Assembly: GCA_041641305.1 (NCBI GenBank)
Contig: JBEPYN010000001.1
Coordinates: 384,001 to 448,000 of the forward strand
Length of the DNA: 64,000 nt
Origin: Nitrososphaerota archaeon
GTDB lineage: Archaea; Thermoproteota; Nitrososphaeria_A; Caldarchaeales; Caldarchaeaceae
Direction of reading: 5' to 3'
Position numbers and translations under genes: made by a program. Positions 34,568 to 64,000 of the stretch are shown piece after piece (positions within the stretch are counted from its first letter, which is position 1; every line of letters begins with the position of its first letter). Below the pieces are notes generated by a model that saw only the letters and a list, made by a program, of their open reading frames with translations, did not search any database and had not been told where the DNA came from.

Positions 34568-35020
34568 TTAGGCAATTACGCCTGTCACAGCTGTCGACAG
34601 AACTTGGCTTGAACCATCAACGAATGAAACAGTGATTGACACCGGATAGGATTGGCCAAGAACGGTGCATCCCGCCGTATCTGTAGATGTGCCCGCCAGG
34701 GTTGCTCCAGGATCTCTACTTCCGGTCCATGTCCATGTTGTAAAGGCGCAACCTGCCGGCAGACCAGATATAGTCACAATTGGGTTTGTGGCGGAGATAG
34801 GGACGTCTCCTGTGTTTTTTAAGACTATGGTGAGTGTTGCTGCACCAGCCGGTGTTGCTACTAGTCTTATCTGGTCTATTATTGCTGTTGGTCTTCTGCC
34901 TGCTATGCCTGCAAGGTTGAAGAAGACACCTGAGACGACGACGGCGGCTGCAACGGTTATCGCTATCAACAGGATAACGGCTACAAGAGGGCTCAAACCT
35001 CTAGCTCCTGAACGAGTCAT
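34568..35020 (-). CDS. Archaeal type IV pilin (class III signal peptide), probable major pilin
   Basis: ARG|LSPLVAVILLIAITVAAA. Confidence 0.9.
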   Translation of the reverse strand: MTRSGARGLSPLVAVILLIAITVAAAVVVSGVFFNLAGIAGRRPTAIIDQIRLVATPAGAATLTIVLKNTGDVPISATNPIVTISGLPAGCAFTTWTWTGSRDPGATLAGTSTDTAGCTVLGQSYPVSITVSFVDGSSQVLSTAVTGVIA

Positions 35021-49409: not shown

Positions 49410-50216
49410 TCAACCGACGATAACCGTCCCGCCGCCTAAATCAGCCGCTTCAACAGGGTCGGCGACAAGCCCAGTGCATATGTGCGCCCTCTTTACACCT
49501 GATTGCACAGCCCTGGCGGCCATCATCACTTTGCGGTTCATGCCCGGCCCTATTTTGTCCAGTATCTCAAGCGCCTGTGCAGCGGTTAGACTCTTAACCA
49601 GCTCACCGTCAAGCAGCAACCCATCAACATCAGTGAGGAGATACAGCTTGTCTGCGTGTATGCTGCTTGCTATGGCGGCTGCGGCCGAGTCGCCGTCTAC
49701 GTTGAGTAATTCGCCTTCCTCCCCTATTGCGAGTGGTGAGACAACGAGCACAACCCCGAGCTCGAGTAGACGTTTTATGAATTGTGCGTCGACCTCTGTG
49801 ATTGTTCCCGTGTATCCGCCGTCGACCACACGTTTGCGTCCTCTTTCGTCGACTATCACGATTTTCTTCTTTCTCTGGGCTTTGATGATCGAAGCATCTA
49901 CTCCCGAGAGGTTTACAGCTTTAACGCCCAGCTTGTTGAGGTAGGCGGCAATCTCCTTGCCGAGTTTTCCGGCCATAACCATGGTGTAAACCTCTATCTC
50001 AGCGGAGTCGGTGAGCCTGCTTCTCACACCCGAGGGTGAGACAACTATCTTCGGCTCAACACCCAGCCGACGCTCAAACTCCGAAACAATATCTCCCCCA
50101 CCGTGGACGAAAACCACTCCATCCGAGGAATGCCGCGCGACTGACTGGAGTATGTTTTGTCTGTTCGACGCGAGAGCTCTACCACCTGCCTTGACAACTA
50201 TCACGGAATAGCTCAT
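49410..50216 (-). CDS. lysZ: [LysW]-aminoadipate/glutamate kinase
   Basis: VVKAGG, VHGGG, LNVDGD, GPGMNRK. Confidence 0.92.
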   Translation of the reverse strand: MSYSVIVVKAGGRALASNRQNILQSVARHSSDGVVFVHGGGDIVSEFERRLGVEPKIVVSPSGVRSRLTDSAEIEVYTMVMAGKLGKEIAAYLNKLGVKAVNLSGVDASIIKAQRKKKIVIVDERGRKRVVDGGYTGTITEVDAQFIKRLLELGVVLVVSPLAIGEEGELLNVDGDSAAAAIASSIHADKLYLLTDVDGLLLDGELVKSLTAAQALEILDKIGPGMNRKVMMAARAVQSGVKRAHICTGLVADPVEAADLGGGTVIVG

Positions 50217-50234
50217 CCCGATGTGGATTTAAGG

Positions 50235-51302
50235 TTAGGCTGGGCGCAGAGGAGGATAGTTGAGACCGTCTCTTTCATCGAAGCCGTGCATGATGTTGAA
50301 ACACTGAACCGCCTGCCCAGCCGCACCCTTCATCAGGTTATCAATCGCCGCGAAAAGAGCCGCGCGTCCTATCCTTTTCTCCACGGCGAAACCCACGTCA
50401 GCAAAATTGCTGCCCACAACATATTTTGGGTCAGGATACCTGAAAGGCGCCCCATGAACTATCCTTATGAAGGGCTCCTTGGCGTAGCGGCTTGCATACA
50501 CTTTCCAGACATTGTTTTCATCAGTTTCCTCGTTTAGAAACCATACATGAGCTGTTGCAAGTGCTCCGCGTACTGCTCCGACGGCGTGCGGAACCAGTGC
50601 TACCTTTACCGGCTTTTTCGCAAGCAGAGAGAGCTCCTGCTCAACCTCGGCAACATGCCTATGCCCCTCCGCCTCATACGGCCTCATCACGTTAGCTCTC
50701 TCCGGATGATGGGTGCCCAGCGAAGGCTTTATCCCAGCCTCACTGCTCCCAACCTTGACGTCAACAACAATCCTCTCCAAATCAATCAACCCCTGCTCTA
50801 CGGCGGGAACAAGAGCTATCAACGCTGCAGTAGAGTTGCAGCCGGGACAAGCGACGAGCGACGCTGTTTTGATAAATTCTCTGTATATTTCGGGCAAACC
50901 ATAAACCGCTTTGTCCAAGAGCTCGGGCCTCGGATGCTTCGTCTCATACCACTTCTCGTAGTCAGCGGGCTTTCTTAAGCGGAAGTCGGCGCTGAGGTCG
51001 AGGACTCGGAGGCCTCTGTCAAGGAACTGCGGTGTCAATGTGGAGGATACGCCGTGTGGTGTGTTGACGAAGACTGTGTCACATTTCTCGACAAGTGCTT
51101 CGACATTTACTTCGGAGAACTTGAGACCTTTGTAGAAGCCGCGGAGATGAGGATGGATTGCTGTAAAGGGCTTGCCAGCATATTCCCGTGATGTTACATA
51201 GGTTACTTCAACGTTTGGATGGACCGCGAGAATTCTTAGAAGCTCTCCTCCTGTGTATCCGGAGCCGCCGACTAAACCTACACGGACAACCATTCCAGCC
51301 AC
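50235..51302 (-). CDS. lysY: [LysW]-phosphate reductase (ArgC-like)
   Basis: GGSGYTGGEL, DLSADFRL, PGCNST, DNLMKGAAGQA. Confidence 0.93.
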   Translation of the reverse strand: MAGMVVRVGLVGGSGYTGGELLRILAVHPNVEVTYVTSREYAGKPFTAIHPHLRGFYKGLKFSEVNVEALVEKCDTVFVNTPHGVSSTLTPQFLDRGLRVLDLSADFRLRKPADYEKWYETKHPRPELLDKAVYGLPEIYREFIKTASLVACPGCNSTAALIALVPAVEQGLIDLERIVVDVKVGSSEAGIKPSLGTHHPERANVMRPYEAEGHRHVAEVEQELSLLAKKPVKVALVPHAVGAVRGALATAHVWFLNEETDENNVWKVYASRYAKEPFIRIVHGAPFRYPDPKYVVGSNFADVGFAVEKRIGRAALFAAIDNLMKGAAGQAVQCFNIMHGFDERDGLNYPPLRPA

Positions 51303-51358
51303 ATATCCTGCCCCCTTTTTTATAAAGCATATTATTTACTCCGTTACTTCTACTGCCG

Positions 51359-51790
51359 ATGTCGGCGGACATCGATGAGATTGATAGAAAGATAATTGAG
51401 ATGCTAAAGGAGGATGCTAGGAGAAATTTCACTGAGGTGGGGAAGGTGCTTGGTTTGTCTGAGGGGGCTGTGCGCCGGAGGGTGAAAAACCTCATGGACA
51501 AAGGTGTCATCAAAGGGTTTACCGTGGTTCTCTCCAAAGACTATGGAGTTAAGGCCGTTACCTTTCTCAGCGTCCATCCCTCTGTGCCCACCCCCGAGGT
51601 CGCCGACAAGCTCATCAAGTTGGAGGGTGTTGAAGAGGTTTACGAGATCACGGGAACAAGGGACGTCATGGCTATAATCACGGTACCCTCGATGGCGTCA
51701 CTTAACAAGGTCATCGAAGCTATTAGAAACATATCCGGTGTCAGCGAAACCAACACAAGCATTATTCTTAGGCAAGTTAGGAAAAGTTAG
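51359..51790 (+). CDS. Lrp/AsnC-family regulator (LysM-like), divergent from the lys genes
   Basis: IDEIDRKII...LSEGAVRRRV HTH; VYEITG. Confidence 0.88.
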   Translation: MSADIDEIDRKIIEMLKEDARRNFTEVGKVLGLSEGAVRRRVKNLMDKGVIKGFTVVLSKDYGVKAVTFLSVHPSVPTPEVADKLIKLEGVEEVYEITGTRDVMAIITVPSMASLNKVIEAIRNISGVSETNTSIILRQVRKS

Positions 51791-52260
51791 TCGATGACCT
51801 TGGCCCGTGTTAAGAGAAGAAGCAGCTCATCATATGTGCTGTCAACATCGTTTACGGCGGACTCGGGGACGTCGAGGTTTACGGGTACGCGGTGCTTCCA
51901 GTAGTAGCCGTTCTCGACGTTTAGCCGTGTGAAGACGCCGGTAACAGCGGGCGGAAGCTTGTAGTTGTGTTTGTTAAGGATGTATTCGACGAAGCATATT
52001 CGGTAGGCTTTTTCATGGATGTCGCCGTAAAAAGTGTTGAAATAAACATGGAGAGGCGAGTTTCTGGTGTATGTTTCCCATGTTGTGAAGGCTGTGTAAA
52101 CAGGTATCCAGCCGTCGTCTCGGAGGACCTTGTCCTCGAGAGAGATGGGCCGTTTCCAGCTGCTTACGAAAAATCCTCTGGCCTCAAGCATGGGGATAAC
52201 ATATCTATGTATTATCCCCTGCCTCATCAGCTCAATCTTCTCCCTCAGCGTCAGCGCCAT
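51787..52260 (-). CDS. Hypothetical protein
   Basis: 157-aa ORF filling the gap; no motif recognised. Confidence 0.6.
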   Translation of the reverse strand: MALTLREKIELMRQGIIHRYVIPMLEARGFFVSSWKRPISLEDKVLRDDGWIPVYTAFTTWETYTRNSPLHVYFNTFYGDIHEKAYRICFVEYILNKHNYKLPPAVTGVFTRLNVENGYYWKHRVPVNLDVPESAVNDVDSTYDELLLLLTRAKVID

Positions 52261-52328
52261 ATATGTGCACCTTCGAAGCCGTCGGCCGCAAAACCGCCTA
52301 AAACAACATGTTCGGGTTGTTTAAAACT

Positions 52329-53132
52329 TCATTTTTCACAGGTCTTCAGATAGTTTAGAAGCCCTGACCCGTCGACCTTTTCCGCCGCGGATGTATCCGC
52401 TTTCATGAAGGTAATAGAGATAGCCTTTTCCACAAAAACGGCGTAGGCGTCTGTGCCTGGCTCAAGGTCTTTACGCAGCTCCCCCTTCAGCCAATAATAT
52501 GGCTTGCCTCGGGGGTCTATTCGCTCCTCGACAAGCTCTTTGTAACGGTTTCTCGCCGCCCTCGTTATGACGTAGGGGGTGGAGTCTGAAACCATGTATG
52601 GGAAGTTGACGTTCAGATAGTCTGCGCCCTTTGGAAGCCCGTGTTGAAGAAGATAGCTTATGATGGGCTTTGCTTTGGCCGCTGCTTTGGCCATCATGGT
52701 TTTCATCCACTCGGCCGACGGAACACTGTCCTCCGGCAGCGAGAGTGAGAAGGCGGCAGCCGGATAACCCATCAGGCAAGCCCTTATGGCCGCGCCGATG
52801 GTTCCGCTGCCATAAACAGCCTGAAGCGAGACGTTGTTACCCTCGTTTATCCCCGAGACCACGAGATCCGGGCCCTCGCCGCCGTAGACATGCCTAACCG
52901 CCATTATCACGCAGTCTGAGGGGCTGCCTGAGCAGGAGTATGCTACATGTCCTCCGAACTTAATTTTCCTTAGCCGTAGCGGCTTGTGGAGGGTTATGCT
53001 CATGCCGACGGCGCTTTTCATCGACTCGGGCGCAACAACCGTGACCTCGCCCAAATCACTTAAAACATCATAGATGGCCCAGAGACCGGGCTTCAGAACA
53101 CCGTCGTCGTTGGTGAGAAGTATTTTCTTCAA
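52329..53132 (-). CDS. surE: 5'/3'-nucleotidase SurE
   Basis: ILLTNDDG, GSPSDCV, SGINEG, DPRGKPYYW. Confidence 0.95.
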   Translation of the reverse strand: MKKILLTNDDGVLKPGLWAIYDVLSDLGEVTVVAPESMKSAVGMSITLHKPLRLRKIKFGGHVAYSCSGSPSDCVIMAVRHVYGGEGPDLVVSGINEGNNVSLQAVYGSGTIGAAIRACLMGYPAAAFSLSLPEDSVPSAEWMKTMMAKAAAKAKPIISYLLQHGLPKGADYLNVNFPYMVSDSTPYVITRAARNRYKELVEERIDPRGKPYYWLKGELRKDLEPGTDAYAVFVEKAISITFMKADTSAAEKVDGSGLLNYLKTCEK

Positions 53133-53134
53133 GC

Positions 53135-53734
53135 CTATTCCTTCTGCATCAGCATCTTCGCAATCTCTGTCCGGAGAACAGGCTTAAGCCTCTCGAGCCT
53201 CGCTTCGACGGAGTTATCGTATCTCATGGAGCCGTCGACTGAGGTTGCTCTTAGCCCCGCCTTAATCGGCGCCGGCTTACCAGACACAACAACTTTTACT
53301 CCGTATTTCTTCTCAGCCACCACCTCTCTCAGGAGTGGGAGAGCCACCTCGTTTGTCTCAACCACTATGTCACGGCCCATAACCTGCACGGTTTCATCCA
53401 ATAACCTAGTAAGCACCTTTTTGAACTCAGGCGTCCCCGATTCCTTGGCTATCTTCTCGAGAACAGACTCGAATATTTTGTTGACTTCTTCCTCGACGGC
53501 CGCTATCGCCATGTTCTTGGACTGGATTTCCGCTGTGCTTAGTATCCTTTGGACGGATGCTTGGCGCGATGCTTTGCCCGCCTCCTCAATCTGGGCCAGC
53601 TCTTGCATAACTTCTCTTTCCACGCGGTTGACCACCTCGAGGGCCTCCGCCTCCGCTTGATCGAGAACCTTCAACCCGTTCATCAAAGCGTCCTGAAGAA
53701 CCTCGTTAATCACTTTGGACAGCGGCACCGACAA
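53135..53734 (-). CDS. A/V-type ATP synthase subunit E
   Basis: Helical charged N-terminus; SVDGSMRYDNSVEARL; adjacent to subunit F. Confidence 0.8.
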   Translation of the reverse strand: MSVPLSKVINEVLQDALMNGLKVLDQAEAEALEVVNRVEREVMQELAQIEEAGKASRQASVQRILSTAEIQSKNMAIAAVEEEVNKIFESVLEKIAKESGTPEFKKVLTRLLDETVQVMGRDIVVETNEVALPLLREVVAEKKYGVKVVVSGKPAPIKAGLRATSVDGSMRYDNSVEARLERLKPVLRTEIAKMLMQKE

Positions 53735-53775
53735 GACTGCTCAACCCGAGAACATACACCCTCCTAAAAAAGATG

Positions 53776-54072
53776 TCAAACACCGAGGACGCTGCGGAGA
53801 AGCTTGCGGTAATCGATTTTCCGCGGGGCCCCTACAGGTGGTGACAGCTCATACACCAGCGGCGTGGGCTTGCGGGCCCTTAGCTCGTTCAACTCATCCC
53901 TGAACTTTTCTGAAAGGTCTTCCGAGACGATTATCAAGCCGACATCAGCCCTGCCCATAAGCTCCTTGATGGTTTTGAAAGCCTCCTCCGGTGAGTTGAC
54001 CGCGACACCCTCCGCACCGGCTAAGATGAAGCCGTTCACAAAAGTCGCTCCACCGACAGCGTATACCTTCAA
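53776..54072 (-). CDS. A/V-type ATP synthase subunit F
   Basis: GFILAG, DVGLIIVSE, LRSVLGV. Confidence 0.88.
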   Translation of the reverse strand: MKVYAVGGATFVNGFILAGAEGVAVNSPEEAFKTIKELMGRADVGLIIVSEDLSEKFRDELNELRARKPTPLVYELSPPVGAPRKIDYRKLLRSVLGV

Positions 54073-54106
54073 TCCGTCAAGCCTTCTTTCACTCCTTGAT
54101 TTAACG

Positions 54107-55264
54107 TTAAACCACGAGCTCTACGGTGTCGCCGTCCATCAGGACGTGGCTGGGCCCAACCTGCTGACCCTGTATCTTAACCGACCTACCCCAGACCCGT
54201 GCATACCGCAGCTCCTCCGCTATCTCACGGTGAATGATCTGAGCGAGCTCCCTAACGGTTGTCCCCTTCTTCACCACAACGGGTTTCCTGTTAACGACGC
54301 CGTCTTTCTGGGTGTAGATCCTGATGAGCTCGAGATGCTGAAATATCTGTTCGGCGAGGTCTCTGTAGCTGGCGGGACTGCTTTCCGCGATATAAATAAG
54401 TGGGAGACTTAGTTCCTCGGTTGAGCGGCTCAGCTTCTCAGCTTCAGCAGCTGGTATATGTTGGCTGCGTCCCACGGCGACCAGGGCTTTTTTGTAGATT
54501 GTTGGACGGAAAACCTGTTCCAAAACCCCGTCCACATCAGTTTCGCCGTATATCTTAACAACAGCGTTACGTATCCCTATCTGCTGGAGCTGTGACTTAA
54601 GCTCTGCTAAAGAGCCGTGGAAGCGGCCGAACAAGACAATCCTTATGCCGCCGCTGTCCGTCTTCTCGACCTCTACATCGAAGCTCTTTTCACCCAGCAT
54701 TATGCCAGCGTCGTCAAGCATCTCGACAAGTTTATGGAGTTGCTGCACGGGGTTGCTCATGCCGTCTAACGTGAGCACGATGAGGTCGGCGCCACGGGCC
54801 GCGGCTATGCTTCTGACAGCGAAAGGTGTTGGCTCTAGTTTTGACGTAAGGACGGCGGGAAGCTCAACAAGCTGGATGTAAACATCTTCGTAGAGCATCA
54901 TGGCTGGGACTGGGCGGGTTGTCGTCAACTCATACATACCCACCTCGGGCTTGGCGTTTGTCAGGGCCCTTATGATGGTTGATTTTCCCGAGTTAGCTAC
55001 ACCGAGGAGTGCAACCGTGGCGGCGCCCTCTTTTCTGAATGCGAAAAGATCGGTGCGGGAAACCTTGGCTGACTTTTTCCTCTCAGCCTCTTTCCGAAGC
55101 TTGGCGAGGGTTGTCTTCAGCTGCGCCCGCATCTTTTCCGTGCCTTTATGGTCAGGTATAAGCGGCAGAGCCTCCTCGAGGGCCCTTATCTTCTCCTCGA
55201 TTGTACGGGCCTCCTGATACTTGGCCAGCTTCGCCTGAGCCTCGGCGGGAAGGTTTGTCGGCAT
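54107..55264 (-). CDS. DRG/OBG-family GTPase with TGS domain
   Basis: MPTNLP, HKGTEK, GVANSGKS, ARVWGRSVK..GQQVG. Confidence 0.9.
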   Translation of the reverse strand: MPTNLPAEAQAKLAKYQEARTIEEKIRALEEALPLIPDHKGTEKMRAQLKTTLAKLRKEAERKKSAKVSRTDLFAFRKEGAATVALLGVANSGKSTIIRALTNAKPEVGMYELTTTRPVPAMMLYEDVYIQLVELPAVLTSKLEPTPFAVRSIAAARGADLIVLTLDGMSNPVQQLHKLVEMLDDAGIMLGEKSFDVEVEKTDSGGIRIVLFGRFHGSLAELKSQLQQIGIRNAVVKIYGETDVDGVLEQVFRPTIYKKALVAVGRSQHIPAAEAEKLSRSTEELSLPLIYIAESSPASYRDLAEQIFQHLELIRIYTQKDGVVNRKPVVVKKGTTVRELAQIIHREIAEELRYARVWGRSVKIQGQQVGPSHVLMDGDTVELVV

Positions 55265-55301
55265 CCCTTGTGTCAGGCAGCCCTCCGAAGGAATAAAGGT
55301 T

Positions 55302-55841
55302 TCATAGATAGTTGAGCAGAAAGTAGACAAGTACGCCGAGGACAAGGCTTAGGCTCCACAGCCTCACCCCCCATCTACCGACGGCTCTGTGCCTCGTCTT
55401 TTTCCCAACTTCTGCGACTGGTGTAAAAAGCCCGGTTAAGATGTTGTAGAGCACAAGAGGTACGGAGACAATTGAGAGACCGAGATGAATGATGAGAGAG
55501 GGTAGGTAGACAAAATCACGTATTGGCTGTGGGCCTGTGAACTGTTTTACTCCCCCGAGGAAGAGGCGTCCGAGATACATCGTCAAAAAAGCCGTAATTA
55601 GGATGAATGAGGCCAGCATCAGAAGTCTGTGAAGACGGATGTCGCGTCTCCTGATGGCTCTGTAACCCGTGAGAAGAGTGACGACGGCGACTGAGTTGAC
55701 GGCCGCGATAGCATGGGGCAGGATTTCCACGAGCGGTGAAGACGTCGCTGGAAGTTCCCGCGGAGCAAGGAGCAGGTAGCCGAGAACACCGTATGCGGCT
55801 AAAGTTATGACAAGAGTCACGAGCGAAAACCTGCTGAACAC
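55302..55841 (-). CDS. DUF420 membrane protein
   Basis: LPHAIAAVN, HRLLM, LIIHLGLS, HRAVGRW. Confidence 0.85.
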   Translation of the reverse strand: MFSRFSLVTLVITLAAYGVLGYLLLAPRELPATSSPLVEILPHAIAAVNSVAVVTLLTGYRAIRRRDIRLHRLLMLASFILITAFLTMYLGRLFLGGVKQFTGPQPIRDFVYLPSLIIHLGLSIVSVPLVLYNILTGLFTPVAEVGKKTRHRAVGRWGVRLWSLSLVLGVLVYFLLNYL

Positions 55842-56013
55842 ACCTGCTTATACAAGGGTCACAATTTAAAGCTCCGTACTCCGAGCTGACCATCCTCCTC
55901 ATCAAACACTCACACCAGACAAACTATCACCCCAAACATAAACAAAAACACCATAAAAGAAGGGAGAAAAGAGGGGATGGTTGGCTGGCAGGCAACCACC
56001 AACAACACCTAGG

Positions 56014-56104
56014 AAACCCTAAAAGAAGCCGGCACTTTAATTGTGACGGCAAGCCTCTTAAAGAGACTCTTTATTTAATTTGGCATACCGGCTTTTTTGG
56101 GTTT
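56014..56104 (-). ncRNA. Putative dual-guide hairpin RNA (two UGCC-N9-AAAG segments) downstream of the IS110/TasR-like gene
   Basis: Minus strand GCCGGUA-UGCC-AAAUUAAAU-AAAG-AGUCUCU-UUA-AGAGGCU-UGCC-GUCACAAUU-AAAG-UGCCGGC; both stem mismatches become G.U only on the minus strand. Confidence 0.6.
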
Positions 56105-57069
56105 TATCCCTGTTGTTGGGCCGGTATGCCTGCCAGCTTCTGGGTTTCCTGTCTGATGGTCGTCCAGATTGTTTTTAGTAGTTCTTGTTGTTGTTTTCCT
56201 TGTTGTTCTGTTCCATGTATTGCTCTTGCTAGTCTGGTTAAGGCGTGTCGTGTCTCATGGTTGTATTGTTTGTATCGTTTATTATCGAAGAGGCGTAGGT
56301 AACGTTTGAGCTTCATGAAGCCTCTTGAGAAGTCGACATAGGTCAACAATTCAGCCAAAGCCTCCCTAGCCATCACATGGTTGTCTCTTATTCCGAGTAT
56401 GTCTGCGATTGTTTTGTAGTATGGGTACCTCCTCTCAGCCTCCTCAGCAATAATCTCTGCCAGCTTCCTCATTCTCTCCTCGTTAAACCTTATCTCCTCC
56501 CTCAGTATCCTTCTCTCCATCTCTGATACTGCCTTAGACATGTTGAGCAGTCTCTGATGAGTTTTTAGGAGACTCCGGAAGGCAGCTATCATCCTCCTCA
56601 TTATGAGGAAGTCTTCATCCACCCTACGGAACCACTTATCACCAATAGCCATCAGAACCCTGATGTCAGATTTCGCGGACTTGGATTTTATGTTCAGCCT
56701 CTGCCTCACCGCCTCAATCATGCTTAGTCTCCGCAGATAGTAGACCTCTGCGCCTCTCCTCAGAAGCTCCATGAAACCATCTGTGTGGATTATTGGGATG
56801 GTGTCGACGAATACCTTGTCTCCCGGACCCACAGGAATCTCCGAAGGAGAATCAACATGCCTAAAGTTTTCGCCATCAGTTGTGTATGTTATCCTGTATC
56901 CGCTGTCGTCTTTCTTACGGTGGATGTCGGCGTAGAACCTTTTTACACCTTCTGCGCCCACGCCCTTGTCGCCCACCGCCGGGCCAGCGGCGGACGCCCC
57001 CGAATCATCAATCAGCCTCTCGGGAGCGGAGTCCGACTGGGAAGACGCGGAGGACATAATCCTCCCCAT
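56104..57069 (-). CDS. Divergent IS110/TasR-like protein (RuvC-like domain, coiled coil, Nop/HhH-like C-terminus); start uncertain
   Basis: FYADIH / VFVDT / KSAKSDIRVL resemble IS110 DEDD motifs; ILGI...ALAELL...F...LKRYLRL...YNHETRHAL resembles the IS110 C-terminal domain without the SG loop. Confidence 0.55.
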   Translation of the reverse strand: MGRIMSSASSQSDSAPERLIDDSGASAAGPAVGDKGVGAEGVKRFYADIHRKKDDSGYRITYTTDGENFRHVDSPSEIPVGPGDKVFVDTIPIIHTDGFMELLRRGAEVYYLRRLSMIEAVRQRLNIKSKSAKSDIRVLMAIGDKWFRRVDEDFLIMRRMIAAFRSLLKTHQRLLNMSKAVSEMERRILREEIRFNEERMRKLAEIIAEEAERRYPYYKTIADILGIRDNHVMAREALAELLTYVDFSRGFMKLKRYLRLFDNKRYKQYNHETRHALTRLARAIHGTEQQGKQQQELLKTIWTTIRQETQKLAGIPAQQQG

Positions 57070-57812
57070 ATGGTTGTTGGGGAGGCGGGCTCATGAAGCC
57101 CGGGAGCTCCGTGTCTACCCAGCCGCCCCGCTGTGACTAGGTCCCCAAAGGAGGCATTATTCCTCCGAGAATCATCGTGAACACCTATGTCTCCGCCAAA
57201 GGGCTTTGGAGCCGCTCCCACCAAGCGCCCCCATGGCGCCGTGATGAGAGAACCCGTGGAGGAGACACCATGCCTCCCCCACGGAAAACAGGCTCCAAAA
57301 ACCCTTGGCGAAGCATCTGAACAATCGTCTGACTATCTTCTGTCCTGTCCATGGTGTCTAGGGGGTGGTGTAGTCATGCGTAGCACGGCCTACACACCCC
57401 GCGATGCCGACCATGCGTAGCACGAGAAGGCATGCTTTGTCAAGACACCTGGACAGGCCTCAGCCGCATCGGCTCCGCCCCCGGCTCCGTCATGCGTAGC
57501 ACGGCCGGAGCCTTTCCCATCCCATGCATCCCGGAGAAGCCTGTCATGCGTAGCACGGCCAGACAACTCCACAGAGACACCCGTCATGCATGGCACGGCC
57601 GGGTGTCTGGGGCGGCGGACGCATGGGCTGGAGCGGAGCCGGAAGCCAGCCAACCACCCCCGCCACCCCACAAAGAATAATCAATGGGGTGGCCGCCTTG
57701 TTTCAGGCGGGTTAAGGGTGGCTGGTTCTTTTGTTTTCCCTCCTCTGCTTCTGTTTCATTGAACCCTTTTTTGGGTTCTCTGCTGTCGACTCCGCGAAGA
57801 TGTCTTCGCGAA
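57061..57812 (-). ncRNA. Putative large structured non-coding RNA/leader with five motif-capped hairpins
   Basis: Dense nested inverted repeats; GTCATGCGTAGCACGGCC-type motif five times on different stems. Confidence 0.5.
57373..57600. repeat. Five copies of an 18-bp motif GTCATGCGTAGCACGGCC (3 exact, 2 variant)
   Basis: Copies at 57373, 57412 (13-nt core), 57489, 57543 and 57583 (variant loop). Confidence 0.9.
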
Positions 57813-57862
57813 GTCCCATACCCTATCGAATGTGGTAGTGCTGGAGGCTTTTCTCCTTTTTT

Positions 57863-58447
57863 GTGGAATCTTTGTTTCCACCCTCTCTGGGAGTATATGT
57901 TTTTGTGATGGTTTCTCCGTTTTTTCATGGGTTTATGGGTTCTGGTGGGCGTGTTGGGGCAGCGTGTCTCCTACTCCTCATATACCTCTCCCTTAAGGGC
58001 TGGTCTCTGAGACGGCTGATATCTCGCCTGACACGGAATCCGAAGCGCCGCTATGCTAGGGTCCAGTTTAGGGAGCTTGCCGGTGAAATTGGGGTATCAC
58101 ATACACGTGTCAGGGGATGTGTGGATGAGCTTGTCGACGCAGAGTTTCTGGAGATCCGCCGTGAGGGTGAGGAGATATACATCATGGTTACTCGTAAGGG
58201 TGAGAGGCTTTCCTCAACGGCGACGAACTCAAACCTCATACTCCTGATATCCATAGCCCTCTACCTCTCAACGCTGTATAGCGTAGCCATCACGGCGAAC
58301 CTTGTCCTAGGAAAACCCATCGAACCCTATACAGGGCTCCCGTTAATAGTGGCGCTACTCACCACCTTCGTAATAGCCCTACCCAGACTCTACACAACCC
58401 TCCTACTAAGAAACCTAAGAAAAGCGTTAACAGGGCAGGAAAGATAG
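57863..58447 (+). CDS. Winged-helix protein with transmembrane helices; start uncertain
   Basis: FRELAGEIGVSHTRVRGCVDELVDAEFL...VTRKG wHTH followed by two hydrophobic segments. Confidence 0.55.
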   Translation: MESLFPPSLGVYVFVMVSPFFHGFMGSGGRVGAACLLLLIYLSLKGWSLRRLISRLTRNPKRRYARVQFRELAGEIGVSHTRVRGCVDELVDAEFLEIRREGEEIYIMVTRKGERLSSTATNSNLILLISIALYLSTLYSVAITANLVLGKPIEPYTGLPLIVALLTTFVIALPRLYTTLLLRNLRKALTGQER

Positions 58448-58721
58448 AGAGTATCCAACCACACCACATGATGAGGACAACGGGGCAGGGGATGCAAACA
58501 GCGACAGAAAAACCATCGCTCTTAATCCGATTTTTGTGGGTTTGTTTATTGCCTGGTGTTTATATGCTACATAGGTTTGGCTGTATCACTCACCTTAGAT
58601 GGGGAGGGCCTGGTTGGGCTTTTTAAGGAGGTTAGGTGGTCTATCTTGTCCTTTGTGGGAGGGTTTGGAGGCATGGTGGGTACGTGGATCGCAGGGGACA
58701 GGTATGGGAGTAGTTGGAGGT

Positions 58722-59528
58722 CTATGGGTGGGAGAAGGCTACGCGGTATATCAGTTTTCCGAATGGTGTGAGTTCGTATTTTTGTCCTGTGTCTTTGATT
58801 AGTAGGAGGTCTTCGGCCATGGCTTCTGCTACGTCTTTTCCGTATCTTTTCTCGAATTCGTTTTTCTCTATTGCGTTGGGTTGGATTAGGTCTTGGAGGG
58901 CTGAGCGGTATTTTTGGTCGAGGATTTCGGATTTCCAGTCTATGGGTAAGGGGGGTAGGGTGATTGTTGTTTTGAAGGTTTCGTGTCGGTAGTATACTGG
59001 TTTTCGCATTATGAAGGAGACGAGGCTGAGGGCTGTGCCTTCGGGTTTGAACCCTCCAGTGGCGTTTAGAAGCACTCTTTCTCCTTCGTGTTTTTTGATC
59101 AGGTCATAGGTTTTGAGGAGTAGGTTTTGAAGGCCTTTCTCATTGAATTCCTGCTCTGTTTGGAACCCTTCTATCCTGTGTTTTTTGGTGTTTATGCCTT
59201 TTTCCCAGAAGTATCGCTGGAGTGCGTTTGCGCATACCTCTCCAACCTCTGTGTCTGTGTGGAGTAGGTGAACTGTGTCAACTTTCCCTTTTTGTATGTA
59301 TTCTGAGATGGAGCTGAGTTCTGCGCTCGCTTCATGCCCCTTGTTTCTTATGTAGGTTAAGAGTTCTTCCACCACTTTTTCCTTGTTTATCTCATGTTTT
59401 TTTAGGGCGTTTTCCACGTCAAGCTGTCCTTGGAGGCTTGGCGGCAGGGTGGGGAGCTGTTTTTCCCGTAGTGCGTTGTTGAGGAGGCTGGCTCCCACGG
59501 TAACGATGTGAACGTATCTTTTGGGCAT
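58722..59528 (-). CDS. CRISPR-associated CARF protein, APE2256 family (putative Crn1-type ring nuclease)
   Basis: TVGASLLNN, LLHTDTEVG, LNATGGFKPE, VYYRHETF; C-terminal wHTH (LTPFG); next to the array. Confidence 0.85.
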   Translation of the reverse strand: MPKRYVHIVTVGASLLNNALREKQLPTLPPSLQGQLDVENALKKHEINKEKVVEELLTYIRNKGHEASAELSSISEYIQKGKVDTVHLLHTDTEVGEVCANALQRYFWEKGINTKKHRIEGFQTEQEFNEKGLQNLLLKTYDLIKKHEGERVLLNATGGFKPEGTALSLVSFIMRKPVYYRHETFKTTITLPPLPIDWKSEILDQKYRSALQDLIQPNAIEKNEFEKRYGKDVAEAMAEDLLLIKDTGQKYELTPFGKLIYRVAFSHP

Positions 59529-59690
59529 TTCGGACGCCGTAAGAGTATGTGCTGTTTAGATAAAAAAGTTTCTGTTCGCAGGGCTCGGGTTGCCGCCAAT
59601 GTATGGTGCTGTGTTTAGAACTTGTTGTTTTGTTAAGGTTCTCCATCTTCTCTTTTTCATCGAGGGGCCAGTAGTGAGAGCATGCCTCTC

Positions 59691-60784
59691 ATCTCCATCC
59701 TCCTTTCATTGACAGTTGAGCAAGGTCGTTTCCCTGCATAAGTCTTTGAATACTCAGCTTTCCATCCTCTTTTCATTGACAGTTTATTAGTGCATGTGTT
59801 GGGGGGTGTTTTGTGCATGCAGTCTTTCCATCCTCTTTTCATTGACAGCTAAGCGTCGGCGGCATCATCAAAAAATTCTTCATAAACTTTCCATCCTCTT
59901 TTCATTGACAGTGGTCGAGGCGGACAAGCGGTTTTCCAATTTATTCTATATGCTTTCCATCCTCTTTTCATTGACAGTGCATCTCGACCCCGTTGACTTT
60001 AGCGGCATTCCTCGGGACATCTTTCCATCCTCTTTTCATTGACAGACACCACTTAAACAACCACACATATTTATCCAAAGTAAAAATCTTTCCATCCTCT
60101 TTTCATTGACAGCGACATATTTGCCAAGCTGCTGGAGCCAGATACACGCCTTTCCATCCTCTTTTCATTGACAGTTCGGTCCGCTGGCTCTCAGCTTCCA
60201 GTTGGGGCAGGTGATCTTTCCATCCTCTTTTCATTGACAGTGAAAATGTACATGGAGTATGAGGCGGAGCATGAAACAGACGCTTTCCATCCTCTTTTCA
60301 TTGACAGAGACTTGATGATAGTCTCCGACGTTGGGTTCTCTTTTTCCAGCTTTCCATCCTCTTTTCATTGACAGTCACGTGTCTATAGAGTTTGACGGCA
60401 GGCGCTATTGTGTTACGCTTACTCGCTTTCCATCCTCTTTTCATTGACAGAAGAAGTTCATAAGTTGCCTCCTGGGACAAGAGTTCATAGACTTTCCATC
60501 CTCTTTTCATTGACAGACGAAGGATGTGGCCGCGTTTCTTGGAAAAAGCCAGCAGTCTTTCCATCCTCTTTTCATTGACAGAAATATATGAAACACGCAA
60601 AGGATACCACATAATTGCTTACTTTCCATCCTCTTTTCATTGACAGTGGGACATAGAGAACTACCCCGCTCTCGACGTTATGCTGAACGCTTTCCATCCT
60701 CTTTTCATTGACAGGACGTCGAGGTTCGGAGAGTTCCGTGTGGTGCAGATTAAGAAGGACTTTCCATCCTCTTTTCATTGACAG
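59691..60784 (-). CRISPR. CRISPR array: 16 exact 25-bp repeats CTGTCAATGAAAAGAGGATGGAAAG plus 1 degenerate repeat; 16 spacers of 37-51 bp; further remnant near 59640-59664
   Basis: Counted directly; degenerate copies at the low-coordinate end and the GAAAG 3' end give minus orientation. Confidence 0.97.
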
Positions 60785-60959
60785 GTGTGCCTGATTCCCG
60801 GAAATTTAGGCGAATCGGGCGGTTTTGTCGAGTGGGTCTTTCAGGCGACGAATTTTTGGAGCCTCTATATTAATGTTAGCCGGAAATCCTCGAAGGTTCA
60901 GCGATAGCCGTCGGTAATGGGCCCATCAAAAATGAGAGAATAAAGGAAAACTTTTGACA
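60785..60959 (-). promoter_or_regulatory. CRISPR leader
   Basis: Non-coding, adjoins the intact end of the array; AT-rich ATTAATATAG (minus) near 60864-60873. Confidence 0.7.
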
Positions 60960-62084
60960 TCACCTCCTGAAACTCAGCTTAACCCACCCGAGGGGGCTTG
61001 GCTCGCCGTCCGCCCCTTCCTGCACTAGACGCATAGACGACGGAAAACTCCGAGGGGCCGCCTGACTAAACCTCCTCGAACCTAACGCCCTAAACACCTG
61101 ACCCTCCAGATTTTCAAAGGCCATCGTAACCGTAGTCTTCCAATAACCCTGCCCATAGCCCAAGCTGGTCACAGCCTCCAGCTCACCAACCTTAGAAACC
61201 TCATCCAACAGAGAATCCAACCGTCTCCGAACACTCCCCGAAACATTCCCACCACCCAGCCTAACCAAATCCCTTTGCAGAACAGCCCGAGACCTCTCGT
61301 TAGCCATCTTCACCAAATCACTGACCAACGTCCCAACCATATCCTTCCTCGCAACCTTCTCCGAAACCTTTTGAACCATGAATACATGCAGGCCTCCGCG
61401 AAAAACCGTTCCCGAGGGAACCACCTCAACAAAGCCTAACCGCCTCTGACCAGAACCCCCAAACCTCATGCTAAGAAGCCGCGCCACACAAGTCTCCACC
61501 TCAGCCTCTGGAAACAAGTCAGATGGTCTCAGAAGCCGCAACAAATCACTCTCGAAAGAATGAGTATCCCGCCTAAGAACACTCTCCACCACAGCACCTT
61601 TCCCCTTTCTTTCCTGCTTAATTTCCTCCAACAACTTTCCGGCCAAACCTGAGTTACTCTTCAAAATCCCATATATCAGAGAAGTCCTGAGCGAGCCCTT
61701 CAGACTGCTCCCCGGCAGATACACCGACCCCTCAAGCGTTCTAATGAAAGGCATCAACTCAGAGCTGAAACTGTCATCACGCAAATGGTCCCGGAACCTT
61801 ATCCTGTATCTCGCCACCTTTTCAGCGAAGCGCTGCACGTCAACACCGTTATTCCTAAGGAACAGGGTGAGAGAAAAGTGTCCTGACTCCAGCTCCCTTA
61901 GATACATGTTCACAAGCCGATTTTTTTCCAGTTCTTGGAAAAGTTTGTCATGGTCCACCACGTAAAGCCAGCCGCCATGGTGTATGTAATCGACGCCGGT
62001 CAACCTCTCGTTCATTCCCACGTGAATAGGAGTTAGGGCCTGGACACGAATCTCGTAAACCTCAACCTGTGACAGCCGAGGCAT
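60960..62084 (-). CDS. csm5: Type III-A RAMP Csm5
   Basis: LTPIHVG, YLPGSSLKGSLRT, LGYGQG, PLGWVKL. Confidence 0.9.
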   Translation of the reverse strand: MPRLSQVEVYEIRVQALTPIHVGMNERLTGVDYIHHGGWLYVVDHDKLFQELEKNRLVNMYLRELESGHFSLTLFLRNNGVDVQRFAEKVARYRIRFRDHLRDDSFSSELMPFIRTLEGSVYLPGSSLKGSLRTSLIYGILKSNSGLAGKLLEEIKQERKGKGAVVESVLRRDTHSFESDLLRLLRPSDLFPEAEVETCVARLLSMRFGGSGQRRLGFVEVVPSGTVFRGGLHVFMVQKVSEKVARKDMVGTLVSDLVKMANERSRAVLQRDLVRLGGGNVSGSVRRRLDSLLDEVSKVGELEAVTSLGYGQGYWKTTVTMAFENLEGQVFRALGSRRFSQAAPRSFPSSMRLVQEGADGEPSPLGWVKLSFRR

Positions 62085-63060
62085 CCATCATCACCGGAAA
62101 AGCATACCCATAACGGTATACGCCGCCGTATACATGCAACATACGCCCAAAGACTCGCTTACCACCGAACGCGGGAAAAACAGAACCCTCCTCGAAAACA
62201 TAACATCTAAACCTCCCAACCCCAGAGTACATCGCAGTCCTCTCAACAACAACATAGCCAAGACCATCTCCAAAACTTTGTATCACTTGGGCTTCATCCC
62301 TAGTCGGAGAATATGGAGAAAGTGTGTAAAAGAGGCCGCCGCTGTCGCGCAAAAATTCGTCGTCCCGAATTATGAGCGGCTCTCCCTCAGATACGCCTAA
62401 ACCAATCGACCTCTCACCACCTACCCCGAGTTCCGCAACAGCCCTGAAGGACGCTAAGAAACGACTATCCTCATCAAACATTCTCAACCAAAAAGCTAGG
62501 CCACAGCCCTCTCCAAGCTCCACCGCAGCGGACCTGAAGAGCTGGGTTCTCATGCTTAGTCTATCCAACACCACCCTCCTACTCTTCACAAGCCTGTGGC
62601 CAGGAATCATCCCCTCCTCGGAACTCAGCGCCAAAACACCCTCTACAATCCTCAACTCCTCCAAGGTCCCTGCGATAAGCCTGGAGACAGCCTCTACAGT
62701 CCCGAAAACCACTCTCTGCGCCAGCTTAGCGGCCTTCCCCTCATCACTTTCCAACCTTTTCGCTACATCAAATAGCCGAGCTCTCAGCCTGGGCATCCGC
62801 GGCACAGGTATCAAAACACTTACCATACCTTTCACCCTCTTCGCAGGGAACATGGATGAGACGAGGAAAGACGGAGCACCGTTAACGAAACGCGACAGAA
62901 GAGACTTCAGCTCATCCCCACCGTAAAGCAGGGAGTAGGCCCAGCAAAAAGCTCCGAACAACGTATCCGCCCCCACGATAACCCGGTAGTCCTCCATAGA
63001 AGGGCCGGAACCGGCTCTATAACTTCTTACGGGGAGGAAAACTAGGAGAGCGTCTGACAC
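62062..63060 (-). CDS. csm4: Type III-A RAMP Csm4
   Basis: ADTLFGA, VSSMFP, GVGGERSIGLG, EEGSVF, YRYGYAF. Confidence 0.9.
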   Translation of the reverse strand: MSDALLVFLPVRSYRAGSGPSMEDYRVIVGADTLFGAFCWAYSLLYGGDELKSLLSRFVNGAPSFLVSSMFPAKRVKGMVSVLIPVPRMPRLRARLFDVAKRLESDEGKAAKLAQRVVFGTVEAVSRLIAGTLEELRIVEGVLALSSEEGMIPGHRLVKSRRVVLDRLSMRTQLFRSAAVELGEGCGLAFWLRMFDEDSRFLASFRAVAELGVGGERSIGLGVSEGEPLIIRDDEFLRDSGGLFYTLSPYSPTRDEAQVIQSFGDGLGYVVVERTAMYSGVGRFRCYVFEEGSVFPAFGGKRVFGRMLHVYGGVYRYGYAFPVMMDASAVTG

Positions 63061-63066
63061 AAACTC

Positions 63067-63903
63067 TCACTTGCTATTAATTTTTAAGAATTGCATTATC
63101 TGGGACTTGACATCTTCAATATTCGTAAGAACATCGTCAACCGTTTCATAATATCCTTCAGCGGGTATTTTCATGACCCCGTCTTTCGGGTTGCTGAAGT
63201 GGTTTGGTGAAATAACCTTAAACACGATATTCTTGAACTTAATCCTGCCATAACCTCTTGAGCCATAGCCCCCCAAGTAATCCTCTTCGACGAGCTTCAT
63301 CGCCTCAAAGACTATCTTAAAACGTTCCACATCCCTTTTCCCATTGTTTCCTTCTCCGTCGAAGACGAGGTACGACATGTTAACCTCGAACTCAGAATCT
63401 TTGGGAATCCTCTCCACCCACCTCGGGTTCGCCTTGCTAGTCAGTCTATCCAGCGCGTTCTCCCCCTTTACCTCGATCGAGCCAAATACCCTCCACCTAT
63501 TTCTCGTCTGATCTGTTGCATATGAGTCGCTGACTCTCAAACGAGTAAGCGATAAGATGTTTTGAACCTCGCCCGACTCCTGACTCTGTTGCTTTTCAAC
63601 CAACTCGGGCTGCCTCCCAAAAACTATGCAAACATCGCAATCGATATTGTCGCATAGGTGAATGCTCATTTTGAGCTTGGTGCTGAGGGGTAGATCCCTG
63701 TAAAGCTCATACTTTGACCTCATCGCGCCCTTCAGTGAGGAACCGGGGATATACGGCTCCTGAGTGAACGGGTCCTTTATCACAACGTTCTCCACACCAC
63801 CTATTTCGGTGCCTCCGGGAGTTCCACCGATCCTAAGCCCAGTTAGACAGGACAACAAAGCATTTACCTTAATGAAACCAGCAATCCTAACCATACCTTT
63901 CAC
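63067..63903 (-). CDS. csm3: Type III-A RAMP Csm3 (start may be 63894)
   Basis: TGLRIGG, PYIPGSSLKGAMRS, YLGGYGSRGYG. Confidence 0.93.
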   Translation of the reverse strand: MKGMVRIAGFIKVNALLSCLTGLRIGGTPGGTEIGGVENVVIKDPFTQEPYIPGSSLKGAMRSKYELYRDLPLSTKLKMSIHLCDNIDCDVCIVFGRQPELVEKQQSQESGEVQNILSLTRLRVSDSYATDQTRNRWRVFGSIEVKGENALDRLTSKANPRWVERIPKDSEFEVNMSYLVFDGEGNNGKRDVERFKIVFEAMKLVEEDYLGGYGSRGYGRIKFKNIVFKVISPNHFSNPKDGVMKIPAEGYYETVDDVLTNIEDVKSQIMQFLKINSK

Positions 63904-64000
63904 GCTCCATCTCTTTTATGAAGTTGTAGTAGGCGATTATGGATTCAGAGACGTTGAAGACCAGCTCTATATACTTGTGCGGCTCTGGCGAATCCATCAA
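63887..64000 (-). CDS. csm2: Csm2 small subunit, C-terminal 37 aa (truncated by the window edge)
   Basis: Manual translation ...VFNVSESIIAYYNFIKEMERERYG* resembles the Csm2 E-x-I-x-A-Y motif; lies upstream of csm3. Confidence 0.7.
   Translation of the reverse strand: MMDSPEPHKYIELVFNVSESIIAYYNFIKEMERERYG

Follow-up and report, generated by a model that had tools for sequence, protein, structure and literature searches.

A junction sequence complementary to a nearby hairpin apex points to an RNA-programmed mobile element in a Caldarchaeales chromosome

Why should nine nucleotides at the edge of a genomic island be the exact complement of a hairpin apex encoded just inside that island? The question is raised by a 64,000-nt stretch of DNA (hereafter, the window) from a Nitrososphaerota archaeon of the order Caldarchaeales (assembly GCA_041641305.1, contig JBEPYN010000001.1, positions 384,001 to 448,000). 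This is a 1.66-Mb Caldarchaeum-type genome, which we refer to as G000 and compare with its nearest complete relative, G009 (same genus, 1,680,938 bp). An initial annotation of the window had described the match, and read it either as an RNA-specified insertion junction or as a target of RNA-guided repression. We conclude, with considerable confidence, that window positions 55858–55869 are the left junction of an RNA-programmed mobile element; the insertion reading draws its support from empty sites in related genomes, from guides that covary with their flanks, and from homology breakpoints that fall at guide matches.

The plus strand at 55858–55869 reads GTCACAATTTAA; it contains, as the initial annotation had it, an exact copy of the guide 9-mer GTCACAATT, which is the reverse complement of the hairpin-apex sequence AATTGTGAC (56039–56047). 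The second guide sequence, ATTTAATTT, has a single exact occurrence in the window, at 56073–56081, and its first 6 bases are those at 55864–55869; also as claimed, 12 of the 15 bases of a composite site are present at the boundary, with the two guides on opposite strands. That this site is the boundary of an island is borne out by comparison with G009: homology (85%) ends exactly at 55869. Beyond this left-flank homology G009 enters argS directly, and the argS of G000 is found from C1:454537 on (86.5% identity). We therefore deduce that G000 carries a 14,667-bp insertion (G000:C1:439870–454536), the left 8.1 kb of which occupies 55870–64000 of the window, with 6.5 kb past the window end. The second junction, which the initial annotation did not locate, lies beyond the window at G000:C1:454536/454537. 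With the cut (slash) set after the repeat, attL is GGGTCACAATTTAA / AGCTCC and attR ends in TTGTGATATTTAA / TTTTGGCTTC (equally, TTGTGATATTTAA / TTTTGGC): ATTTAA is found at both junctions. The left junction comprises the host left half, GTCACA, and a 6-bp AT-rich centre, ATTTAA. The host flank on this side is a DUF420 membrane-protein gene (55302–55841, minus strand; PF04238, E 1.9e-36) that is kept beside argS across the genus. Hot-spring metagenome contigs of 17, 11.7 and 60 kb connect the island to both of its flanks, and so the island is not an assembly artefact.

The initial annotation had also predicted the sequence that should be found at this locus in genomes that lack the island. Both G009 and a second relative, G001, read exactly the predicted GTCACAATTTAATTT, followed by TGGC. 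The empty site of G009 is CAAGGGTCACAATTTAATTTTGGCTTCATG; other recognizable empty sites are GTCACAATTTAATTTTGGC (G001; also contained in the G009 site), GTCATAATTTAATTTTGGC (G010), CTCACAATTTAATTTTGGC (G011) and ATCACAATTTAATTCTCCC (G002), those of G010 and G011 being one base different. In G009 and three further species of the genus, the intact site is (G/C)TCA(C/T)AATTTAATTTTGGC. Besides G009, nine other species of the genus have DUF420 next to argS; for a tenth, the retrieved locus covered the DUF420 side only. Before insertion, the target of the window element was GTCACA-ATTTAA-TTTTGG.

The hairpin that carries the two guides (55973–56140), which we consider to be a guide RNA gene, overlaps the last codons of the open reading frame (ORF) of the recombinase-like protein described below. 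Either strand of it folds far more stably than shuffled sequence does (z −5.0 and −6.5). When up to 22 copies are aligned, they show hypervariable guides on a near-invariant scaffold: the stems are nearly constant, and only the apex loop varies. The apex is laid out as a CGTTTAAG-like box-N5-GACAT, a small stem, and then a CGTTAAAT-like box-N5-GACAT-ACC. In the window, the 5′ guide module (56036–56048) reads TTTAAT-TGTGA-C on the plus strand, and its AATTGTGAC complements the left half-site's top strand; the 3′ guide module (56070–56084) reads TATTT-AATTT-GG on the plus strand, and its ATTTAATTT has the same sequence as the right half-site's top strand, ATTTAATTT(T)GG. An initial RNAalifold consensus on a gapped alignment gave a poor structure and was replaced by a structure projected from one copy, combined with pair counts: 89% of cells are paired, vs 32–50% with the partners slid, and the apical stem contains compensatory changes at 6 of 7 pairs. 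This pairing, and the compensatory changes in the apical stem, are the signature of a structure under selection. G000 contains four copies of the hairpin plus ORF, and the genomes of relatives up to 14 hairpin matches.

As to which strand encodes the RNA, the folding energy of the apical stem is better for the plus strand in 11 copies, better for the minus strand in 4, and tied in 7. G-U counts are 124 vs 50 (64 vs 30 without the outer helix), a comparison that is biased in that the structure was derived from the plus strand. On the other hand, a conserved T6 run after the hairpin and the G-U pairs in the apical stem of the window copy favour the gene strand, towards which we lean slightly. 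In two metatranscriptomes, whose contigs carry no strand or end information and whose depths are pooled over paralogues, contig depth is 217–400 for the hairpin stems, 181 and 13.6 for the ORF, and 139 for a structured region 5′ of the ORF; the DUF420 flank has 4 and 0, and the remaining island mostly 0–30 (peak 81). These depths give only a hint that the hairpin/ORF locus is transcribed. An Rfam scan of 50000–64000 at E≤1 returned no match. An H/ACA-type pseudouridylation pocket and a TnpB omega-RNA were each considered for the hairpin and dropped after the fold search described below. An inverted repeat, I7 (55973–55989 / 57645–57661), was likewise considered as the element termini and rejected, the actual junctions being elsewhere.

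A key observation to emerge from other copies of the hairpin is that guides and flanks covary across homologous loci, as the initial annotation had proposed should be checked: guide 8-mers are present in the element’s own 385-nt left flank in 6 of 42 tests, vs 6 of 840 for the flanks of other elements, and they occur in the reverse-complement sense only (0/42 in the wrong orientation). Two close relatives of the window protein are instructive. P0003 (92% identical) belongs to an element that adjoins a DNA primase gene, and P0004 (87% identical) to one that adjoins an OCD/EamA gene pair; in both, the hairpin scaffold is near-unchanged and the guide segments are swapped. The 5′ module guides are TTGTGAC (window), TAGCTTC (P0003) and ATCATTT (P0004), and the corresponding 3′ module guides are AATTTG, TACGTT and TAGATT; the match of own guide to flank extends over 12 nt for the P0003 element and 9 nt for the P0004 element. 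In all, 12 elements from at least four genomes follow the rule of two guides that match the two flanks on opposite strands, and at the right junctions the other guide is matched at 8/8 or 9/9 positions (the right junctions of copies B and C are partly resolved only). Either guide module may face the left flank. Their neighbours are unrelated genes, among them those for a tRNA and a DNA primase, and also intergenic DNA; the left junctions lie 18–352 nt from the hairpin.

For elements of G009, the homology breakpoints relative to G000 coincide with the guide matches. Over all elements, seven empty sites are readable, and six of these are the composite of both guides either exactly or with one mismatch. 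Among the empty sites in G000 for G009 elements, CAAGAGCGTT-ATAT-ACAGG is as the guides predict, and CTTCTATAAGAGTTT is an exact 15-mer. The others are AGATT-ATTTAA-GGATG (the guides predict GTATG in the right arm), GCATT-ATTTAA-CCATG (CCCTG predicted in the right arm), GGCTT-ATTTAG-GTTAG (AGCTT predicted in the left arm) and AACCC-ATAAAT-CACAC (CAAGC predicted in the right arm).

These data bear upon the simplest alternative, that the junction match is a chance AT-rich one, or else reflects a protein-only integrase with an attP that resembles its attB. The site is indeed AT-rich, short AT-rich words are common in archaeal intergenic DNA, and the 9-mer GTCACAATT by itself has 3 copies in the 64 kb (vs 0.53 expected from shuffles). 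The third copy, at 34773, runs on into GGGTTT, and we regard it as a chance occurrence that is unrelated to this system. Yet an exact predicted 15-mer stands at the orthologous empty site, where 0.002 exact copies are expected per genome and G000 has no further copy allowing ≤1 mismatch, and guides find their own flanks at the rates just described. Neither would an integrase att pair be arranged as the guides are: the guide copies are mutually inverted with a stem between them, and so are not colinear with attB, and the distance of the left junctions from the hairpin places recombination outside the guides. Furthermore, the minimal elements yielded no match to a tyrosine or serine integrase family, and their main ORF has no Pfam match. 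We give almost no credence to either form of this explanation.

The usual target is laid out as 5 + 6 + 5 bp, and is 14–16 bp overall: each guide spans one arm plus four positions of the centre, such that the guides overlap by about 2 nt (3 nt in the window copy; in one element the centre is 5 nt long). All elements examined have some central sequence at both of their junctions: ATTTAA in the window, and elsewhere ATTTA, ATAAAT, CATA, AAGA, TTA or TT. These junction repeats have only the middle of the target centre in common, and we therefore read them as the trace of a short-core strand exchange like that of IS110 elements, rather than as a target duplication of fixed length. At the window locus the gene starts are close by: the argS GTG is 20 nt to the right of the junction, and DUF420 begins 28 nt to the left (window 55858–55872; L059:15231–15258). 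From standard archaeal promoter geometry, the AT-rich centre is most likely the shared TATA region of divergent, leaderless DUF420 and argS genes. With the centre found at either junction, both flanking genes retain an ATTTAA after the insertion.

This promoter context is also what gives some appeal to the repression reading, in which a ribonucleoprotein on the retained half-site would regulate DUF420. The initial annotation’s TTTAAA box, placed about 25 bp upstream of DUF420, is where it was said to be (55865–55870, 24–29 nt before the GTG start at 55841), the match to the guide overlaps this TATA-like box, and nuclease-inactive TIGR-type proteins have been proposed as regulators (PMC12045711). 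However, only 12 of 15 positions are left here, and the whole right half-site is 14.7 kb off. Moreover, the site is older than the island, being present in the sister species, and the same geometry recurs at 11 other elements, beside unrelated genes. With just one half-site surviving at the junction there is no call for the repression reading, and since the geometry is shared by those 11 elements, the match is explained by insertion history; repression of DUF420 thus seems to us very improbable.

What manner of protein might use such guides? The recombinase-like protein P0001 (56104–57069, minus strand) has 321 residues as called and a conserved core of residues 44–321, that is, about 280 aa. 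It has no Pfam match at E≤0.01; no informative family was found for 34 family members (E≤1) or for 10 distant relatives, and PF01548 (DEDD_Tnp_IS110) and PF02371 (Transposase_20) were unmatched by P0001 and by all of these sequences. A sequence profile searched against PDB chains returned coiled-coil noise only. In a profile search of 1.84 billion representatives there were 565 matches at 90% clustering and 201 at 50%; by these sequence criteria, the P0001 family is small and has no link to any named family. An AlphaFold model, built from 34 homologues (pLDDT 82.7, pTM 0.77), was more informative: with it, Foldseek retrieved only the IS110 bridge recombinases (ISCro4 9t56; IS621 8wt6 and 8wt9; E about 1e-6) and TasR (9mty, E 7e-6). 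The modelled fold comprises a RuvC-like domain at the N terminus, a coiled coil and a C-terminal helical Tnp/Nop domain, as in the IS110 family. Asp48, Asp89 and Asp135 are at least 95% conserved in 121 family sequences. Their spacings resemble those of the IS110 acidic residues. In the loop that by motif corresponds to the IS110 serine loop (P0001 residues 262–274, window ~56250–56290, minus strand), the Tyr that precedes the serine position is conserved in 86% of the 121 sequences, and is a candidate alternative nucleophile. Of 300 genomes that sampled the phylum, 17 had a match to the protein, every one of them in the window’s own order; among the matches listed, there are up to 7 protein matches per scored genome.

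Bearing in mind these several observations, we favour the explanation that the element encodes a RuvC-like/coiled coil/Nop-like protein of ~280 aa together with one long hairpin RNA, the apex of which carries two pseudo-symmetric modules (conserved box, about 5–6 variable nt, GACAT-like box) around a small covarying stem. Each module would provide a guide of ~8–9 nt, and the two guides would pair with opposite strands of the two target halves, both reading outward from the AT-rich centre, where they overlap by 2–3 nt. The element would then join into this centre, leaving one half-site on each side and a 2–6-bp central sequence at both junctions. We infer that the RNA binds the protein. By analogy with IS110 enzymes, the protein probably performs a conservative strand exchange at the centre.

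The strongest rival to strand exchange is RNA-guided homing: a TasR-like nuclease would cut targets that are still intact, whether on a chromosome copy without the element or on DNA entering the cell, and repair templated by the occupied allele would copy the element and any cargo into the break; the split target would protect the carrier. Gaps in our description keep this idea alive, namely the RNA strand, donor recognition, the non-conserved serine, and a circle or excision product that has not been seen. Nevertheless, homologous repair predicts no junction repeat, and the repeated centre is there in every element examined; homing alone leaves unexplained 4 to 14 or more colonised loci per genome, each with a different guide; and defined element ends are indicated by conserved subterminal sequences and by a right-end gene. 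We consider homing unlikely overall, and somewhat less so when it is set directly against strand exchange, to which we attach about three times the weight.

Several other observations weigh against our interpretation of an RNA-programmed, recombinase-driven insertion. The fourth position of the DEDD motif is Ala, and the position of the IS110 serine, which we assigned by its K-x-Y-S-G motif and not by a residue-level structural alignment, is Ser in 44%, Asn in 31% and Asp in 15% of the 121 sequences (Asn in the window copy). Binding of the RNA by the protein, and catalysis, are both things that we infer. The evidence on the transcribed strand of the RNA is mixed, that from G-U pairs included, and the length of the central repeat varies from 2 to 6 bp. 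When the element ends were compared with their own hairpin in both orientations, complementarity was no higher than in cross-controls; as the hairpin also has only one variable loop, a donor-binding loop of the bridge type is missing; the ends themselves are not conserved, and the conserved sequences are subterminal. An ATTGTGA inside the right end of the island is a sense-orientation match to the 5′ guide, but no such pattern extended to other elements. The 20-nt sequence predicted for a circular junction, TTGTGATATTTAAAGCTCCG, had no match in metagenome contigs or in the contigs of four runs (two RNA, two DNA), nor did these metagenome and metatranscriptome contigs contain an empty or excised site of the window element, although contigs seldom retain rare forms. 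Finally, copies within one genome are diverged (58–80% aa), and so show no sign of very recent bursts of movement.

The basic unit appears in its simplest form in G009, where minimal elements are only 1.3–1.9 kb, the size of an insertion sequence (IS). Over its last ~250 nt the island shares 83% identity with the right end of minimal element D, and 77% with C1:531216–531625, which from this similarity we read as the right end of the ~16-kb copy B. Given that the island and the minimal elements have homologous right ends, we treat the island as a single element with its cargo lying between the recombinase-like gene and a gene for a small Zn-ribbon protein (about 100 aa; C-x2-C ... C-P-x-H; basic tail RTKPRKKK). 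The latter gene (L059:14899–15213, equivalent to G000:C1:454199–454513; also at C1:531337–531579 and C2:517922–518149) is conserved at the right end of the elements and reads toward the right junction; its product may serve as an accessory factor by binding the element end.

As to the other elements, one minimal copy in G009 lies directly beside a tRNA gene (L010 / L051:400–547, G009:C1:~503400–503547); its left junction, AGATTATTTA, lies ~18 nt away from the conserved stretch in front of the hairpin. Two loci in another genome, L018 and L025 (G031:C13:17455–17634 and C24:11575–11762), have identical guide pairs, GCTAT / TTTCT, and L035 has the first of these guides too; the identity of L018 and L025 could mean that the target was duplicated, that one locus is a recent copy, or that the assembly contains a duplicate. 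Elements L024 and L030 face each other ~22 kb apart (G009:C1:130498–152738; L053, L055). The G000 homologue of the DNA between them is on C2, and that of the L024 flanks is on C1, a split that could arise from a rearrangement or from an assembly break near the elements.

In the window element, a GC-rich, structured, non-coding region of ~540 nt lies 5′ of the ORF (57168–57709, minus strand; family D5) and contains repeated GTCATGCGTAGCACGGCC modules: five hairpins share a common apex, CATGCGTAGCACG, each closed by a different stem. This region is 90% identical to copy B and 80% identical to a piece near copy C, and is seen in cargo-carrying copies (A, B, near C, and L028 and L032 of G009); the RNA contig of depth 139 spans 57235–57669. 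Further into the island are a Csx1-like protein (58722–59528, minus strand; Cas_APE2256, E 9.9e-33), a first CRISPR array of 17 repeats (59694–60798), and three genes (60960–63903, minus strand), two of them with RAMP-family (Csm-type) matches and, between these, an unassigned 332-aa ORF. Past the window end follow Csm2, Cas10 with its HD domain, a second array (14 repeats), Cas6 and then the Zn-ribbon gene; the cargo also includes an HTH-like protein. No cas1 or cas2 was seen among the ORFs examined. We identify this cargo, by its gene matches, as a type III-A (Csm) CRISPR-Cas module (window 58722–64000 onward; L059:3422–13745), the presence of which between the recombinase gene and the right-end zinc-ribbon gene would account for the 14.7-kb size of the element. 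A whole CRISPR-Cas locus thus appears to be carried inside a guide-RNA mobile element. Near the right end of the island there is also a fragment of a DDE_Tnp_1 transposase (59 aa, E 2.7e-8; L059:14216–14395) that looks to be what is left of another insertion sequence. In G009, the element whose site is orthologous to that of copy B (L056:3200–9323) again has defence-type cargo: an Eco57I/MmeI-type methylase (1019 aa) and then a PLD-SNF2 helicase (1026 aa), followed by an IS240-type DDE gene and a ParA-like ATPase.

Should the mechanism be correct, it would describe a thermophilic insertion system of about 280 aa plus one RNA, the target of which is set by two guide segments of ~6 nt, and natural examples of which tolerate 13 kb or more of cargo. 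The family would represent an archaeal, sequence-orphan branch of the RuvC-Nop superfamily, with a bearing on the kinship of IS110, TIGR-Tas and box C/D snoRNPs. It would also show concretely how a CRISPR-Cas module, and defence genes of the restriction type, could travel from one archaeal chromosome to another and settle in conserved promoter regions.

RuvC-Nop proteins that insert DNA under RNA guidance are already known. The IS110/Nop5 study described no archaeal IS110 clade ancestral to Nop5 (10.1101/2024.06.21.599552). The TIGR-Tas study described stem-loop units with box-spacer-box repeated twice, but in arrays and without a role in insertion (PMC12045711). A 2026 survey chose bridge loci by PF01548 plus PF02371 (10.64898/2026.10.21.760802); more generally, published surveys started from Pfam/COG profiles that the P0001 family does not match (PMC12045711; 10.64898/2026.10.21.760802). 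We found no description of this system in the full-text literature on Caldarchaeum with IS110 or on archaeal bridge recombinases. A hairpin RNA that spells out the element's own chromosomal site, still intact in sister species, suggests an archaeal cousin, so far undescribed, of the bridge-RNA and TIGR-Tas systems.

The resemblance to IS110/IS1111 elements with a bridge RNA or seekRNA (IS621, ISCro4; PMC11208160) lies in guides that are complementary to opposite strands of the target halves, and in a short core repeated at both junctions. On the other hand, the new family has no PF01548/PF02371 match, and conserves not the catalytic serine of IS110 but the neighbouring Tyr. The IS110 bridge RNA has a target loop and a donor loop, whereas here there is one programmable loop and the element ends are unmatched by the hairpin (a second RNA elsewhere in the element is possible); the IS110 centre is a fixed dinucleotide, and here it is 4–6 nt and AT-rich. 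Also unlike IS110, either guide module may lie beside the left flank, and the cargo is large.

With TIGR-Tas (TasR; tigRNA; PMC12045711) the system shares, according to the model, a Nop-domain protein fused to RuvC, as well as two short spacers between conserved boxes that pair with opposite strands of one DNA target. TIGR-Tas RNAs are encoded as an array; in contrast, we find a single unit in a stem of ~170 nt, with one hairpin per protein gene in 22 of 22 aligned loci, and no tandem array next to the gene in the window. The guides, unlike those of TIGR-Tas, match the element’s own insertion site, and the genomes record insertion, not only cleavage. The hosts differ too (phages and CPR bacteria for TIGR-Tas, free-living Caldarchaeales chromosomes here), as do the box sequences. 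Box C/D sRNPs (Nop5, fibrillarin, L7Ae) target rRNA and tRNA, whereas here the targets are DNA half-sites that flank the element; the C (RUGAUGA) and D (CUGA) boxes are absent, the boxes here reading CGTTTAA and GACAT, and the acidic residues of the RuvC-like domain have been kept, not lost. IS200/IS605 TnpB/IscB homing and CRISPR-associated transposons are alike in that an element-encoded RNA specifies where the element is kept or inserted, but their folds and RNAs are unrelated, and here CRISPR-Cas is passive cargo and not the targeting machinery.

Whether these differences amount to a distinct class of RNA-programmed insertion is, in our judgement, an evenly balanced matter. Such a class would combine a serine-less RuvC-Nop enzyme (for which Tyr or RuvC chemistry alone is possible) with a single tandem-guide hairpin, would do without RNA-encoded donor recognition, and would move whole defence islands, in this case an entire type III-A CRISPR-Cas locus, into 14–16-bp sites that are rewritable by ~2 × 6 nt; it would be an extant intermediate, within an archaeal lineage, that links TIGR-Tas, IS110 bridge systems and box C/D RNPs.
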